64,000 nt of DNA, taken from contig CATXMO010000001.1 of NCBI GenBank assembly GCA_958372075.1, positions 68,797 to 132,796 on the forward strand, given 5' to 3'. The notes under the pieces were generated by a model. It was given only the letters and a program-made list of their open reading frames with translations, made no database searches and was not told the DNA's origin. A program made the translations under genes and the position numbers. This document shows positions 9,011-61,640 of the stretch, one piece after another. This DNA comes from an uncultured Collinsella sp. (GTDB lineage Bacteria > Actinomycetota > Coriobacteriia > Coriobacteriales > Coriobacteriaceae). The first letter of the stretch is position 1; every line of letters begins with the position of its first letter.

Positions 9011-9066
9011 TTCGGCCAAAAAACCGGGTCGCATTTTCCCGAGCATTTGATACGGCGTTGATACAA

Positions 9067-9140
9067 GGAGTGTCCCCAACTGCCGGCAGAAAAGGAACGT
9101 CCCCAAGTGCCGCCTCAATGACTACCATGGCAACGCCGCA
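9067..9140. repeat. Copy of the GTGTCCCCAACTGCCGGCAGAAAAGGAACGTCCCCAAGTGCCG / AATGACTACCATGGCAACGCCG dispersed repeat module
   Basis: Near-identical strings recur at 61510-61575, 57554-57596 (reverse complement) and 17990-18025. Confidence 0.7.
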
Positions 9141-9169
9141 GGTAGAGGACGGGCAGCGAGCGGGCACCA

Positions 9170-9320
9170 GTGCGAACAAATTGGCATGAAAAGAGGACGG
9201 TATAGACCTTCTGGTCATGCCGTCCTCTTTGAATGACAAGTTGTCGCTCTGGTGCCCGCGCAGCGTCGGGCAGTTACGGCGTTTGGTAAAACGCCGTAAC
9301 GAACTACCGCGTAACTCCCC
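9170..9320 (-). other. Structured 3'-flank element of the lipoprotein gene
   Basis: On the minus strand the lipoprotein stop codon is followed by the stem-loop GTTACGGCGTTT-GGTA-AAACGCCGTAAC (9273-9300), the stem AAGAGGACGG...CCGTCCTCTT (9186-9224) and then TTTTCATG. The same architecture occurs 3' of pyrE. Confidence 0.5.
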
Positions 9321-10789: not shown

Positions 10790-13398
<2,609 letters not shown>

Positions 13399-17059: not shown

Positions 17060-17165
17060 GACGAGCGTGGATTTTTGGACACTCAGATAACGAGCGTGGA
17101 TAATCTCCCACTTTGAGCCCGCACACAGGCCAAAACCGGGAGATTATCCACGCTCATTTTGGGTC
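17060..17165. repeat. B-element copy 1 (~105-nt conserved hairpin repeat)
   Basis: The unit ACGAGCGTGGAT is duplicated, followed by the 18-bp stem GAGCGTGGATAATCTCCC / GGGAGATTATCCACGCTC around a 28-nt loop. Near-identical copies at 34363-34468 and 43288-43395. Confidence 0.8.
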
Positions 17166-17926: not shown

Positions 17927-18030
17927 AACGAGCGCGGATTTTTGGACGCTCATCCTGAGTAGTCATTTAAGAACGCCCCAATGACTACTCATTTATGTCT
18001 GTCCCCAATGACTACCAAGGCAACGCCGAT
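17927..18030. repeat. Truncated B-element 5' half plus A-unit repeats
   Basis: CGAGCGCGGATTTTTGGACGCTCA is followed by TCATTTAAGAACGCCCCAATGACTACTCATTTATGTCTGTCCCCAATGACTACCAAGGCAACGCCG. Confidence 0.7.
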
Positions 18031-18039
18031 GTTTTGGCA

Positions 18040-18191
18040 ACGACAGCGAAAACCCGCCAGAGCGAGCAAGGTGCCTTGAAACGAGGCGGCATTGATCTTT
18101 CGATCATGCCGCCGAAGTTGAAAGGCAGATTGCCGCTCTGGCGGGTTTGCAGCGTCGAGCCGTTACGCGGGTTGGTAAACCCGCGTAACTA
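18040..18191 (-). other. Structured 3'-flank element of pyrE (second copy of the 9170-9320 architecture)
   Basis: The stem-loop GTTACGCGGGTT-GGTA-AACCCGCGTAAC (18162-18189) abuts the pyrE stop. A second hairpin GGCGGCATTGATC-TTTC-GATCATGCCGCC lies upstream at ~18086-18114. Base changes relative to copy 1 are compensatory. Confidence 0.5.
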
Positions 18192-18875: not shown

Positions 18876-19190
18876 GGCTCCTCTCGTAATCGCGTACGTG
18901 CCTTCCAGTTTAGCGCAGGCAGGGCGCGTTGCGGGCGCGCTTTGGGGCCTCGGCATTCTGTAAAGGCTTTGTCAGGGGCAATGGTTTTCCAAACATTGGG
19001 GTTGACACGGCAAACCCCCTCATCAAGAATACGGGCGGATTGTAACGGGTACGAGATACCCAAAGCGCGCCGCGCCCGGCCTTAAGGAGGTGTGCCATGG
19101 AAGGCAGTCATAGTCGAAAAACCTGCATGTCGCCCTCGGCACGCCGCGAGGATTCCGCGCACGCATAAGCGCCAACAGCCGATCGTCAAA

Positions 19191-19224
19191 ACCACCACAA
19201 AGGTGCCTGTCCCTTTGTGGTGGT
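19191..19224. repeat. CCACCACAAAGG hairpin, copy 1 (13-bp stem)
   Basis: ACCACCACAAAGG-TGCCTGTC-CCTTTGTGGTGGT. The same hairpin occurs at 25829-25864 and 45094-45127, with a remnant at ~22125. Confidence 0.7.
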
Positions 19225-19307
19225 TCGAAAGCATGACGTGAGCGACATCTAGGTTTTTTGAAGCACATACGACACGTACGCTAACTCCCTTCAACAAGGA
19301 GGACCCT

Positions 19308-25721: not shown

Positions 25722-25828
25722 AGGTGCACCCCCTCCGTTCTGCTCTGCTCAGCATCACATTCATATGCCTTTGAGCACCAAAACGGCAGGTGACAAATGT
25801 CTCATATTCATATTTTTGCAGGTAAAAA

Positions 25829-25866
25829 ACCACCACAAAGGTGCCTGTCCCCTTTGTGGTGGTTAG
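25829..25866 (-). terminator. Intrinsic terminator of the LuxR-type regulator gene (CCACCACAAAGG hairpin, copy 2)
   Basis: On the minus strand the 13-bp stem is followed by TTTTTTACC, directly after the stop at 25867. Confidence 0.65.
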
Positions 25867-27582: not shown

Positions 27583-27640
27583 GTATCCCCCAACTGCCAC
27601 TCATTTAAGTACGTCCCCAATGAGTACCCAATGAGTAAGC
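27583..27640. repeat. A-unit repeat copy
   Basis: GAGTATCCCCCAACTGCC followed by ACTCATTTAAGTACGTCCCCAATGAGT. Confidence 0.7.
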
Positions 27641-34344: not shown

Positions 34345-34531
34345 GAGTGTCCCCAAGTGCCAAACGAGCGGGGATTTTTGGACACCCAAACAACGAGAGT
34401 GGACAATCTCCCACTTTGAGCCCACAAGCAGGCCAAAAATGGGAGATTATCCACTCTCATTCTGCGGGTACTCATTGGGGACGTACTTAAATGAGTAGTT
34501 TCACTCATTTAAGTGCGTCCCCAATGAGTAG
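34345..34531. repeat. Composite repeat: GAGTGTCCCCAAGTGCC, B-element copy 2 (34363-34468) and an inverted pair of A-units
   Basis: The B stem is GAGAGTGGACAATCTCCC / GGGAGATTATCCACTCTC. A reverse-complement A-unit and a forward A-unit follow. Confidence 0.8.
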
Positions 34532-41249: not shown

Positions 41250-43222
41250 TCACCCGCCCTCGGCATCAAGACGATCATGCGCAGCTGGCCGGGCTCGCCC
41301 TCAAGGCGGTATGCCACGTTGCGCCCTTGCAGAGCGCTTTCGAGCTCTTGCGCAGCGGGCGTCTGAGAAAGATCTTCATCATCGTTGGAAAAAAGCGTGG
41401 CGCGCAGCTCGACACTGCATCGGTCATGATCGCCCAAGTGATACATAAGCGCCGGATGGTCGGTGGTGTAGGCAAAAAACGCAAAGTCATACACGCAGTC
41501 GTACAGGGCGCTTACCGTACTGGCGTGCATCGGGCGCCGTATGGCGATAATCGAGGCGCAATCGATATCGATGGTGCGCAGGTCGCTTGCGAGCTCGTTG
41601 GCAATGAGCTGAATGCGGTCGCGATCAAAACCGCTCTCACCGTGCTGTGCCAACGTGAGCGACCCTTTGCGCTTGCAATAGGCGACGAGCATCTTGGCGC
41701 GCTGCAGCATGCGGTAACGCTCGTGCGAAGACGCCTCGTCGGTCAACGGCGGCAGCGAACTCAGCAGGTCGTACATCCCTTCGAGCGCGCGGGCAAGTGC
41801 TTGGTCCACGTCTTGGACCAGCAAGGTCTCGGCCTCTTGATCTGCCAGGTGCGTCTTAAGGTCGTAGTCGGCGGCGAGCAGCTCGTTTTGACGCTGCAGT
41901 TCCATGCGACGATGTGCCAGTTCACGGTTAAGCTCGTTGAGATCCGACACGTCTTGGGCAAGCAGGGCCGATCCGCCCAGCAGTGGAAAGGCACGGTACA
42001 CCACATCGGGATCGGACGCCACAGCAAAGGCATGGGCGTGGCCGTGCTCCTGGGTCCGCAACTCCTCGCGCACGCCTACCGGCATTGGCTTTGACGCCGG
42101 CGTGGCATAGACCTCCTGCAGGTCGCGCGTTAGAACTTTGAGGTCGAGCGGCAAGGTGTCGAAGATGCCGGCGATGTCGTGATACGACGGAATGACACCG
42201 CAATCGAGACAGATTTCCATCGCCACCACGCACAGGACGCAATAGACGAGCGAAAAGTTGAGCCTCCATGCCCAGGGCACGCGCAACGCATACGAGACGG
42301 CAAAGAATGCGCCACCCAGCAGTACGAGCGCCGCCGTGCCCGAGAAACGCTGGATGCGAAAGGACGAGGACCGGCCCACCAGGATAAAAAAGGCCACAAA
42401 GTTAAAGGCCGTCCACACTAAGACAGCGAAATAACCCCAGCCGTACGTGTAATCGTTGCTCCAGGTGTCGCTTGCACGGTCAAAGTGGAATACCTGCCGG
42501 TGGAAATCGTTGGTGAGCACAAAACCGATAAGTAGGATGGCCACGACCCACAGGATGCTGCGATAGCGACGGCCCGCACGGTGTTGTTCCAGCCCCGCAA
42601 GGCGCAGGCCGCACAGCTGGTAGAGCAGCGGAATGAGCGTCATGGGCACGTAGTACAGGTACCACAGCACGGTGGCATAGAACGGTGTGAACGACTTGTA
42701 TTTGAGGATGACCTCAATCATCCAGAGGGCGCAGATGGTGGCGACGGCAACAAGGCGGCGGCGCAACACATAGTCCAAACAGCGTAGATAGACCGATACA
42801 CCCCAGATCGAAAATATAATTGCGGCGACAAGCAACGGGAGAGAGCTCGAGTGGACGAGCGCATCCACGACCTCTTCGGACACCTCGCTATAGGCGGGCA
42901 CGGCGTTAGAAAGTTTGGGGTCGAAGGCGAACAGCGCCGGCAAGACTGCCAAAACCATGAGGAACAGCGCGGTGATGGCGCCGGCGATAGCAAAGACGCG
43001 GTGACGGTACACCCGATGTGTTATGCCAACAAGGAATCGCGGCATGGCGAAGAGCCTGCCGCCCCTGGGATCCGCCACGGGTGCGGATCGGGCGGCCGCG
43101 TGGCCGATATGTCGCTCGCAGGTACCCATAGTGCTTTTAGTGTACCGACAGGCGGGCCCAAAAAGCGGGCCACATGTCCCAAAATCCGCCGACGGCAAAG
43201 GGTGTCCCCAGGGGCCACTCAT
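41246..43222 (-). CDS. Polytopic membrane protein with a cytoplasmic coiled-coil and no recognisable kinase catalytic motifs, first gene of the two-component operon
   Basis: Eight or more TM helices, then a coiled-coil (ELNRELAHRRMELQRQNELL). No H-box His and no ATPase boxes. The likely start is the internal ATG at 43045 (MPRFLVG). Overlaps the kinase gene by 4 nt. Confidence 0.5.
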   Translation of the reverse strand: MSGPWGHPLPSADFGTCGPLFGPACRYTKSTMGTCERHIGHAAARSAPVADPRGGRLFAMPRFLVGITHRVYRHRVFAIAGAITALFLMVLAVLPALFAFDPKLSNAVPAYSEVSEEVVDALVHSSSLPLLVAAIIFSIWGVSVYLRCLDYVLRRRLVAVATICALWMIEVILKYKSFTPFYATVLWYLYYVPMTLIPLLYQLCGLRLAGLEQHRAGRRYRSILWVVAILLIGFVLTNDFHRQVFHFDRASDTWSNDYTYGWGYFAVLVWTAFNFVAFFILVGRSSSFRIQRFSGTAALVLLGGAFFAVSYALRVPWAWRLNFSLVYCVLCVVAMEICLDCGVIPSYHDIAGIFDTLPLDLKVLTRDLQEVYATPASKPMPVGVREELRTQEHGHAHAFAVASDPDVVYRAFPLLGGSALLAQDVSDLNELNRELAHRRMELQRQNELLAADYDLKTHLADQEAETLLVQDVDQALARALEGMYDLLSSLPPLTDEASSHERYRMLQRAKMLVAYCKRKGSLTLAQHGESGFDRDRIQLIANELASDLRTIDIDCASIIAIRRPMHASTVSALYDCVYDFAFFAYTTDHPALMYHLGDHDRCSVELRATLFSNDDEDLSQTPAAQELESALQGRNVAYRLEGEPGQLRMIVLMPRAGE

Positions 43223-43425
43223 TTAAGTACGTCCCCAATGAGTGGACCAGCGACTAGTCGTTTAAGAACGTCCCCAATGACTAAGACAAAACGAGCGAGG
43301 ATTTTTGGACGCCCAAATGGCGAGAGTGGATAATCTCCCACTTTGAGCCCACAAACAGGCTAAAAACGGGAGATTATCCACTCTCATTCTGCGGGCACTC
43401 ATTTAAGTACGTCCCCAATGAGTGC
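43201..43425. repeat. Composite repeat: GGTGTCCCCAGGGGCC, two A-units, B-element copy 3 (43288-43395) and a terminal A-unit
   Basis: The B stem is GAGAGTGGATAATCTCCC / GGGAGATTATCCACTCTC (perfect). The A-units read ACTCATTTAAGTACGTCCCCAATGAGT. Confidence 0.8.
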
Positions 43426-43509: not shown

Positions 43510-44943
<1,434 letters not shown>

Positions 44944-45093
44944 TCAATCCTTTCGCACGCTGTTTGTCGTGGTTTCAGTATCCCCGTAAGCAGCGCGCTA
45001 CTCAACGGCAACGACGCAGGCCGACACTTCTTTTCGCACACGGCGGCCCGGCAGCCGCCCCTGCCTGACACTTTCTGATACCGCCGCCCCAAA

Positions 45094-45127
45094 CCACCAC
45101 AAAGGGGACAGGCACCTTTGTGGTGGT
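45094..45127. repeat. CCACCACAAAGG hairpin, copy 3 (inverted orientation)
   Basis: CCACCACAAAGG-GGACAGGCA-CCTTTGTGGTGG. Confidence 0.7.
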
Positions 45128-45138
45128 TGGGGACGGTT

Positions 45139-61442: not shown

Positions 61443-61640
61443 CCCTTGGGGACGTTCTTAAACGACTAGTCGTCGGGGACGCTCTTTGCGAGCGACAGAA
61501 AAGGACTGCCCAAACTGCCGGCAAAAAAGGAACGTCCCCAAGTGCCGGCCGTTGGGGACAGTCCCCAAGTGCCGAGTTTTCGCAAGACTGTCCCACATGA
61601 CTACTCGTTTAAGCACGTCCCCGATGACTACTCTGTGGTG
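61443..61640. repeat. Cluster of A-unit and GGAACGTCCCCAAGTGCCG modules. The 3' end of the deacetylase gene lies inside it
   Basis: GGGGACGTTCTTAAACGACTAGTCG (reverse-complement A-unit), GGAACGTCCCCAAGTGCCGGCCGTTGGGGACAGTCCCCAAGTGCCG and ACTCGTTTAAGCACGTCCCCGATGACTAC. The deacetylase stop codon is supplied by the last unit. Confidence 0.7.

Follow-up and report, generated by a model that had tools for sequence, protein, structure and literature searches.

The question raised by the 64,000-nt stretch of an uncultured Collinsella genome analysed here (contig CATXMO010000001.1 of assembly GCA_958372075.1, hereafter "the window") is what kind of element is formed by a hairpin repeat of about 105 nt which occurs in it in several near-identical copies. 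A reading of the sequence alone had taken this repeat, referred to here as the B-element, for a structured RNA or a protein-bound palindrome, on the strength of a stem change that is compensated between copies. The analysis gives a different answer: the B-element is a dispersed repeat of the kind represented by REP (repetitive extragenic palindromic) sequences, REPINs (paired REP sequences forming a hairpin) and MITEs (miniature inverted-repeat transposable elements), present at 44 or more sites, and is not an RNA gene with three copies. The family to which it belongs is real, constrained, of a familiar kind and apparently undescribed. How the family works is less certain. The reading favoured here, whose chances of being right or wrong are put at about even, is that the B-element is one copy type of a Collinsella-restricted, non-coding family of palindromic repeats similar to REPINs and to BIMEs (bacterial interspersed mosaic elements), in which the hairpin would act in transcripts and the repeated units would serve as protein sites.

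Three full copies, all intergenic, are indeed present on the plus strand, and their two parts are far more frequent than chance allows: the 5' module, unit U (ACGAGCGNGGATTTTTGGAC), occurs four times in the window against an expectation of 0.01, and the hairpin core three times against an expectation of 0. In copy 1 the unit U reads GACGAGCGTGGATTTTTGGAC and is followed, after a spacer which is fixed in length but not in sequence, by two inverted copies of a 20-nt arm V (ACGAGCGTGGATAATCTCCC; family consensus ACGAG[C/A]GTGGATAATCTCCC) around a tip. The U unit is 21 nt long in the window copies, and the general building block is about 20 nt; its head is ACGAGCGTGGAT, which continues as …AATCTCCC in the V form and as …TTTTGGAC in the U form. 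Since the first 12 nt (ACGAGCGNGGAT) are common to U and V and recur 29 nt downstream, where they open the left arm, the duplicated unit of the sequence-only reading is confirmed and can be identified as the head that both forms of the building block share. The outer stem, given earlier as 18 bp, measures 20 bp, its second position being a C.A mismatch on the plus strand, and the 28 nt which it encloses are not a conserved loop, because they pair for about 10 further positions below a 6-nt apical loop and are the least conserved part of the family; the whole hairpin thus amounts to about 30 bp over 68 nt. Other details also needed adjustment. Copies 1 and 2 lie where they had been placed, while copy 3 starts 2 nt later than the position first assigned to it (43288). 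An identity above 90% holds for copies 2 and 3 (91.5% over 106 nt), but the other two pairs are each 84% identical, and it is likewise only copies 2 and 3 that share the 3' ending TCATTCTGCGGG, copy 1 closing with TCATTTTGGGTC.

Regions of 121 nt around the three copies fold with z-scores of -5 to -9.6, and no shuffled sequence folds equally well. The minus strand is the better folder (-58 to -66 kcal/mol, against -47 to -51 for the plus strand; -61.8 against -51.4 for copy 1), because several A.C positions on the plus strand become G.U pairs on the minus strand. A T>C change in the left arm of copy 2 (GGAC) is of this type: what is C.A on the plus strand is G.U on the other. Two alternative or extended folds were discarded. 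A continuation of the stem into the spacer and right flank, hinted at by RNAfold for the window copies, is unsupported across 48 distinct spacer/flank pairs (mean z = -0.37), and pairing of U with the right arm was rejected because position 8 of U, which is free, would face a fixed A.

The size of the family was estimated from two complementary scans. The first, which used one genome per species and an exact U pattern, recruited at least 117 loci, in which a profile search found at least 121 elements, distributed over about six large orthologous groups and a number of single sites; among the matches listed, every named record was from Collinsella or Coriobacteriaceae. Recruitment by exact match inflates the apparent conservation of U. 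The second scan, which used the hairpin arms alone and did not require U, recruited at least 120 human-gut metagenome loci containing at least 146 further elements, many of them at new sites; 56 of the 120 metagenome loci listed overlap known Collinsella loci, and the remainder are similar in G+C. Combined, the two scans yield about 270 copies or more, which fall by their upstream flanks into at least 44 groups, each taken as one intergenic site.

Within the searches made, the element still matches no described family, none having been recognised in the sequence-only reading. Rfam gave no match in the window at the gathering threshold, and at a permissive threshold nothing but unspecific miRNA-hairpin background (30.7 bits, where the gathering score is 100). 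BLAST searches of phage and plasmid collections returned nothing outside Collinsella, the only match being a diverged copy in a C. aerofaciens record, and no published description of the family was found. Scans of viral contigs for V, U and the whole hairpin produced no hairpin and a few matches of 18-22 nt inside phage coding sequences, which were judged to be due to chance or are unexplained. The exact matches of 21-22 nt, all within coding sequences (L118 1597-1618, L119 5488-5508, L120 399-419 and L123 7244-7265), comprise the V-arm matches ATGAGCGTGGATAATCTCCCA, at a gene start, and GAGCGTGGATAATCTCCCACTT, and a match to the U of copy 4, ACGAGCGCGGATTTTTGGACG; their number equals the chance expectation for 18-nt patterns, yet each runs 3-4 nt past the pattern.

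The view that the element is not neutral junk is upheld by comparison of orthologous copies, in which nucleotide diversity is 0.00-0.07 in the V arms, as against 0.10-0.29 in the spacer, 0.09-0.27 in the tip and 0.11-0.58 in the flanks (the nearly invariant site D being excluded from the last three ranges). The flank values were computed without gaps and are partly inflated by indels, and the diversity of U is biased by the way in which loci were recruited. Among 137 distinct hairpins, the V arms are invariant at 14 or more of 20 pairs, and stem positions 3-20 are essentially invariant in sequence with two exceptions, the pairs 6:63 and 12:57. The compensated change on which the sequence-only reading relied (GCG/CGC in copy 1, GAG/CTC in copies 2 and 3) is a single base pair, C-G against A-T, and corresponds to pair 6:63, the only pair altered on both sides, which is C-G in 65 hairpins, A-T in 61 and G-C in 3. 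Cells changed on both sides number 45, compared with 26.8 +/- 3.4 after shuffling, and none of 500 shuffles reaches 45, but nearly all of this excess comes from 6:63. The states of this pair track different spacers and right flanks, and so mark subfamilies which have each spread to many sites rather than many independent compensations. The compensation is therefore genuine but weak as a signature of a structured RNA.

A different picture is given by the tip, whose sequence varies between sites while pairs 21-31 are mostly retained, and by the distribution of mismatches: paired cells make up 92.9% of the total on the minus strand and 82-84% on the plus strand, and cells that are A.C on the plus strand (G.U on the minus strand) outnumber those of the opposite kind by 189 to 37. 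A tip that is kept in pairing only points to a hairpin in single-stranded nucleic acid, while arms that are kept in sequence point either to a protein that recognises them or to copies homogenising one another.

If the sequence constraint on the units is given most weight, the B-element may be supposed to act on double-stranded DNA, with U and V as iteron- or operator-like protein sites in rough helical phase and the hairpin as a by-product; possible candidates for the protein are a regulator, a factor of the nucleoid or of replication, and the XRE-family product of the gene lying between copies 1 and 4. Several features of the units are in keeping with this proposal. Between paralogous sites U is fixed at 19 of its 20 positions, and the remaining one, position 8, takes all four bases across the four window copies, although recruitment by exact match makes this conservation look greater than it is. 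The spacing of the units is regular (every 22 nt when contiguous, or about 32 nt apart, with 29-30 nt from U to V in spite of the varying spacer), the position after GTGGA is A or T without compensation in the other arm, and at several sites the next minus-strand gene has the reverse complement of U about 50-170 nt ahead of its start. V arms account for all five TTATCCAC octamers of the window, and this octamer matches eight of the nine positions of the E. coli DnaA box; the arms carry TTATCCAC(G/T) where the DnaA 9-mer is TTATCCACA. A DnaA assignment, however, would leave the invariant ACGAG and TCTCCC flanks unexplained, and U varies at, or does without, the conserved T of the box. More generally, binding to duplex DNA would need neither the 10 further pairs in the variable tip nor the G.U asymmetry in favour of one strand, about a third of the hairpins have no U, no candidate protein co-occurs consistently with the element, and divergent gene pairs, the expected setting for operators, flank few of the sites. 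Action on double-stranded DNA as the primary role is accordingly regarded as unlikely.

For the 31 sites with callable genes on both sides, 11 gene pairs are convergent, 15 tandem and only 5 divergent, and this predominance of convergent and tandem arrangements means that most copies touch the 3' end of a gene. The neighbouring genes range from sugar-utilisation and accessory functions (in the window, and a Fic gene in locus L029) to the core genes clpB, thrE, lysS, metA and recQ. According to the favoured reading, the hairpin would form in single-stranded nucleic acid, most likely in transcripts reading through from a neighbouring gene (or in transiently single-stranded DNA), as is suggested by the placement at gene 3' ends and by the better-pairing strand being the sense strand in 10 of the 15 tandem sites. 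There it could act as a barrier to transcription, a block to 3' exonucleases or a processing site for RNase III, and in this way insulate adjacent genes from one another. The invariant units would be candidate recognition sites for a sequence-specific protein, either the enzyme that copies the family or a host factor; recognition by a protein would explain why the units are constant in sequence and not merely complementary.

A transcript could also start within the element. A small RNA gene, or a cis-regulatory RNA, with a plus-strand promoter of its own formed by U and the left arm, TGGAC(A/G)-17-GA(T/C)AAT, was considered because this is the sole sigma-70-like match in each of the three regions, at the same place and with 9-10 of 12 positions matching, and because a spacer fixed in length and free in sequence is what a promoter has. 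The geometry tells against it: a transcript begun after the -10 hexamer lacks the left arm and so could not fold into the long hairpin, pairing is poorer on the plus strand, and the promoter would usually be directed at the 3' end of a convergent gene. Among U variants GGAC is fixed, but not the TTG of the -35 hexamer (TCGGAC, CCGGAC, CTGGAC); a third or so of the copies have no U to supply this hexamer, and Rfam recognises no such RNA. This explanation has only a slender chance of being correct.

A number of narrower candidates were rejected. A BglG/LicT-type ribonucleic antiterminator, suggested by ...CAGGCCAAAACC in the tip and by nearby genes for glycoside hydrolases of family 1 (GH1) and the phosphotransferase system (PTS), was set aside because those genes do not carry the copies in their leaders, the tip, where the motif lies, is the part that varies, and the genes at most sites are unrelated. 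A role as oriented, Ter-like sites of a replication terminus gained no support, there being no dif-like site in any of the loci; no convincing match was found to the HAIR, CIRCE, LexA or IHF consensus sequences; and a reading of GGA motifs as CsrA sites was dropped as having no basis in this phylum.

The arrangement of the units varies within the family. Among 123 copies selected by their hairpin, U is found at the fixed distance in 75, two to four U are present in 21, and about a third lack U, a small hairpin of a second type (C) abutting the element in its place. The number of U thus ranges from 0 to 4, in tandem and on one side of the hairpin, and the observed array patterns are >><, >>><, >>>>><, >><< and >>><<, with four U ahead of a hairpin in L050 (4262-4440), nested pairs in L010 (4469-4600), and three direct and two inverted units beside a tRNA-Thr gene in C. 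aerofaciens TSDC17.2-1.1. Upstream of this last array (L122 3740-3930), in a region bounded by tRNA genes, lie two pairs of inverted TCTGTAACA/TGTTACAGA sequences. Beside lone U units (at site G; L010 4600-4660, L003, L049, L066 and others) there is an array of TTATCTCTCGT, with three direct and one or two inverted repeats, whose motif resembles the V' end TTATCCACTCTCGT minus CCA.

Tips have been swapped or inverted between copies. At site B, the site following the RpiR gene, three tip types occur, one of which is identical to the tip of site D and another close to a tip of site A; site F has its tip inverted with respect to U. The B-element is also used as a landing site by other repeats and probably by an insertion sequence (IS). 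C hairpins have been inserted into the B tip in L211 and L106, and in L056 (3250-3435) the hairpin of site A is broken exactly at its apex, between …GAGGCCGTAAC and GGGGGTGCGGACAG…, by a sequence which leads into an open reading frame starting MTQRRKRY at the contig end and is probably an IS inserted in the hairpin loop. Hairpins are lost as well as altered: all "empty" versions of sites that were found are imprecise deletions between microhomologies of 2-5 nt (GGAC/CCAC, CCACG/CCACG, GCG/GCG), and in e095 a U has been lost between two ACGAGCGTGGAT heads. The fourth window copy, which had been called truncated, is present as described but is such a scar, with GGAC joined to GCTCAT, as in other strains.

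These events bear on whether the B-element is instead a decayed MITE of a DDE transposon with several transposase sites at each end, V being the terminal inverted repeats and U the subterminal sites, now immobile and partly co-opted. Inverted terminal units of 20 nt, subfamilies with matched arm variants, the large number of sites, a site number that differs between the two ends, and the TG…CA termini of the ATGAGCG…CGCTCAT copies (5'-TGAGCG…CGCTCA-3' in many copies) are all features that such an origin would produce. Yet no target-site duplication surrounds U..V' or V..V' at any site checked, no solo arm or pair of arms flanking a gene occurs in the 1.8 Mb of sequence sampled around known copies, and no transposase stands beside a copy among the flanking genes of the sampled loci. 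IS200-like tnpA and IS110-family genes do occur in these loci, but inside other repeats, with unrelated ends or end hairpins. A known IS or MITE with its transposase, which the sequence-only reading had named as the finding that would overturn it, is likewise absent from the loci sampled around copies, whole genomes not having been searched. Moreover, the empty-looking sites are deletions rather than precise excisions, and a dead element would not be expected to keep its arms intact in many species, as happens here at orthologous positions. Descent from a DDE transposon is thus considered distinctly unlikely.

It may also be asked whether the copies are site-specific recombination sites of the att or attC kind which bound exchangeable cassettes. 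Glycoside-hydrolase and sugar genes lie in two segments, of 5.7 and 15.4 kb, which are found in the window and not in the related genome L029; the larger one ends at copy 2. The gene between copies 1 and 4 is XRE/desulfoferrodoxin-like in the window, is replaced in L029 by a Fic gene with low-GC flanks, and is absent in L068; islands of low GC abut copies, and the four window copies have the same orientation. However, no integrase or recombinase is found among the genes flanking copies, the arms start ACGAG/CTCGT where an attC core is of the GTTRRRY type, the other L029 breakpoints (window 10756 and 16488) are away from B-elements, many copies lie between core genes, and orientation is mixed in the A/E/F cluster. 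Cassette exchange of this kind is very improbable.

Against the favoured reading itself a number of points must be set. With respect to the RNA, function at that level is something we infer from sequence: the preference for the sense strand in tandem sites is a trend which is not significant, in copy 2 of the window it is the weaker strand that is sense, and the uncompensated A>T change at pair 12:57 (GATTATCC>GATTTTCC), found in 22 of the 137 hairpins and at several sites, argues against strict selection for pairing. None of the three window hairpins was called as an intrinsic terminator by a terminator scan; a T-run follows the stem at some sites only (e.g. site E, …CTCATTTTTT), and most copies, having no U-tract after the stem, are not classical intrinsic terminators. 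With respect to the units, gene conversion between copies could, in place of selection, keep the arms uniform, and each arm contains only a weak palindrome, (A)GTGG…CCAC(T), of 4-5 bp with an 8-nt loop. With respect to mobility, no clean insertion polymorphism was seen, movement being deduced only from the number of sites and the subfamilies, and the density of copies is low and patchy, with four within 26 kb of the window and two places in the 900-kb C. aerofaciens record. A RAYT, the transposase expected of a REPIN system, was also looked for: in the 1.8 Mb of flanking loci, tblastn with E. coli RayT had no hit below E=2.5, and there was no Collinsella match in the plasmid collection, which includes the 900-kb record. 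With no RAYT in the sequence searched and hardly any palindrome in the unit, the family cannot be counted as an established member of the REPIN/RAYT system proper. A protein of about 320 amino acids encoded between sites E and F was tried as a possible partner and matched nothing in Pfam or NCBIfam. In L050 (3279-4244) B-elements stand on both sides of this conserved protein, one of them with four U, and its C-terminus has, by eye, a possible PD-(D/E)XK-like motif (VDY…EFDG).

The resemblance to known repeat families is nevertheless close in several respects. In REPINs two conserved units are inverted, each spacer is unique while the hairpin is kept, and more complex arrangements exist (PMC3337134). 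The B-element shares with them an inverted pair of units of about 20-25 nt, a copy-specific spacer with a hairpin, a total length of about 70-110 nt, an intergenic location without target duplication, maintenance at orthologous positions, and complex tandem forms (PMC3116915, PMC3337134). It differs in host, which is an actinobacterium (Coriobacteriia) where the REPIN hosts considered here are Pseudomonas and Enterobacteria; in the lack of a RAYT in the sequence searched; in its weakly palindromic unit, without a 5' motif of the GTAG type; in the extra direct U on one side; and in having apparently far fewer copies per genome, judged by the sequence sampled (three full copies and one remnant in the 64-kb window, where REPIN systems have tens to hundreds of copies per genome). 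The BIMEs of E. coli are likewise mosaic clusters of unrelated short modules at gene 3' ends and targets of IS elements, the corresponding modules in Collinsella being two kinds of hairpin, B and the small C, and the repeat of about 180 nt, but they have no sequence relationship to the Collinsella modules, a REP is far shorter than the B hairpin, and binding of IHF, gyrase or Pol I is not known for the latter. The Correia (CREE/NEMIS) elements of Neisseria and the ERIC, RUP and BOX repeats likewise lie between genes, are palindromic, measure about 100-150 nt and have conserved inverted ends. Such repeats can carry promoter-like hexamers, terminate transcripts or have them processed by RNase III, and form subfamilies. 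Correia elements number in the hundreds and show a duplicated TA target, in contrast to the B family, which has no duplication, few copies and iterated subterminal units. Finally, the operator and iteron arrays of plasmids and clusters of DnaA boxes resemble the B-element in having direct repeats of about 20-22 nt in rough helical phase beside an inverted pair that shares part of the repeat, but here no rep, par or dnaA gene is nearby, there are dozens of chromosomal sites, and pairing extends far beyond a binding site.

The features of the window and of related loci are collected in Table 1, together with other repeats that accompany the B-element. The C repeat is commoner than B and consists of hairpins of about 30 nt, often directly abutting B-elements, in which the loop is conserved while the stems vary and covary (ACTCATT/AATGAGT, AGTCATT/AATGACT, CGGCA/TGCCG). 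One C loop of C. aerofaciens TSDC17.2-1.1 is the exact insertion point (ACGTCC^CCAA) of an annotated IS110-family element, and the C hairpins look like REP-type natural targets of an IS110 recombinase. A third repeat, of about 170-185 nt, has long-range pairing and a terminal hairpin, no Rfam match, and up to 95% identity between sites; it directly follows the stop codons of unrelated minus-strand genes (a phosphoribosyltransferase gene, a PTS EIIA gene, tyrS, lysS and a GntR gene), its minus strand closes with a stem and T-run, and IS200-like elements lie inside it in L232 and L106. The window also contains a terminator-like palindrome, AAACCACCACAAAGG…CCTTTGTGGTGGTT, at three or four intergenic sites, and two GH1 paralogues with 72-81% DNA identity over long stretches (repeat families D1, D4, D5 and D8).

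Table 1. Coordinates of B-elements, accompanying repeats and other features; positions are those of the window unless a locus is named.
Feature	Position	Strand	Remarks
Copy 1, full element	17060-17165	+	Neighbours: RpiR gene (+), XRE/desulfoferrodoxin-like gene (-)
Copy 1, unit U	17060-17080	+	
Copy 1, spacer	17081-17089	+	9 nt
Copy 1, hairpin	17090-17157	+	68 nt
Copy 1, left arm V	17090-17109		
Copy 1, tip	17110-17137		Paired, variable
Copy 1, right arm V'	17138-17157		
Copy 1, sigma-70-like match	17076-17104	+	TGGACA-17-GATAAT, 10/12; -35 in U, -10 in left arm; consensus match only
Copy 2, full element	34363-34468	+	Neighbours: Sde182-like (formerly DUF1593) gene (+), DUF4428 gene (+)
Copy 2, unit U	34363-34383	+	
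Copy 2, hairpin	34393-34460	+	68 nt; GAGAG/CTCTC subfamily
Copy 2, sigma-70-like match	34379-34407	+	Equivalent to that of copy 1; consensus match only
Copy 3, full element	43290-43395	+	Neighbours: GH1 gene (-), HisKA_7TM protein gene (-)
Copy 3, unit U	43290-43310	+	
Copy 3, hairpin	43320-43387	+	68 nt; GAGAG/CTCTC subfamily
Copy 3, sigma-70-like match	43306-43334	+	Equivalent to that of copy 1; consensus match only
Copy 4, hairpin-deleted remnant	17927-17953	+	U (17927-17947) fused to GCTCAT, the last 6 nt of a right arm
Two small C hairpins	17959-18015	+	Abut copy 4; conserved loop AAGNACGTCCCCAA, variable stems
C hairpins	34469-34531		Abut copy 2
C hairpins	43215-43285, 43395-43425		Flank copy 3
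Further C hairpins	27588-27625, 61446-61640, 9065-9112; L121 60-130, 1450-1475		
Repeat of about 170-185 nt	18003-18188, 9113-9300; L121 1501-1670; L018 7176-7339; L103 4997-5177		
Terminator-like palindrome	19189-19226, 25827-25864, 45091-45128		
GH1 paralogues	10790-12376, 43510-44940		
Segments extra to L029	10756-16488, 19057-34502		5.7 kb and 15.4 kb

A further possibility, which is unlikely but would have wider consequences, is that Collinsella holds a persistent, vertically inherited population of REPIN-like elements which is recognised and copied, or else bound to serve the host, by a protein other than a RAYT by way of the iterated unit of about 20-22 nt (one to five direct units and an inverted pair). 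If this were true, it would mean either that the REPIN way of life arose a second time independently or that a DNA- or hairpin-binding protein has a genus-wide network of binding sites. REPIN-like elements have so far been tied to RAYT transposases and are found mostly in Proteobacteria, and a comparable actinobacterial family with no detectable RAYT would be a test case for the origin and persistence of such elements. Current concepts are unchanged unless a new partner protein turns up; a partner other than a RAYT would raise the interest of the family. The adjoining C hairpins, as apparent natural targets of an IS110-family element, are relevant to the biology of those recombinases. For Collinsella itself, a common genus of the human gut whose non-coding genome is essentially undescribed, the defined units and architecture of the B-element can be used in the annotation of intergenic regions, in the interpretation of assembly breaks and strain-level indels, and as a typing marker.

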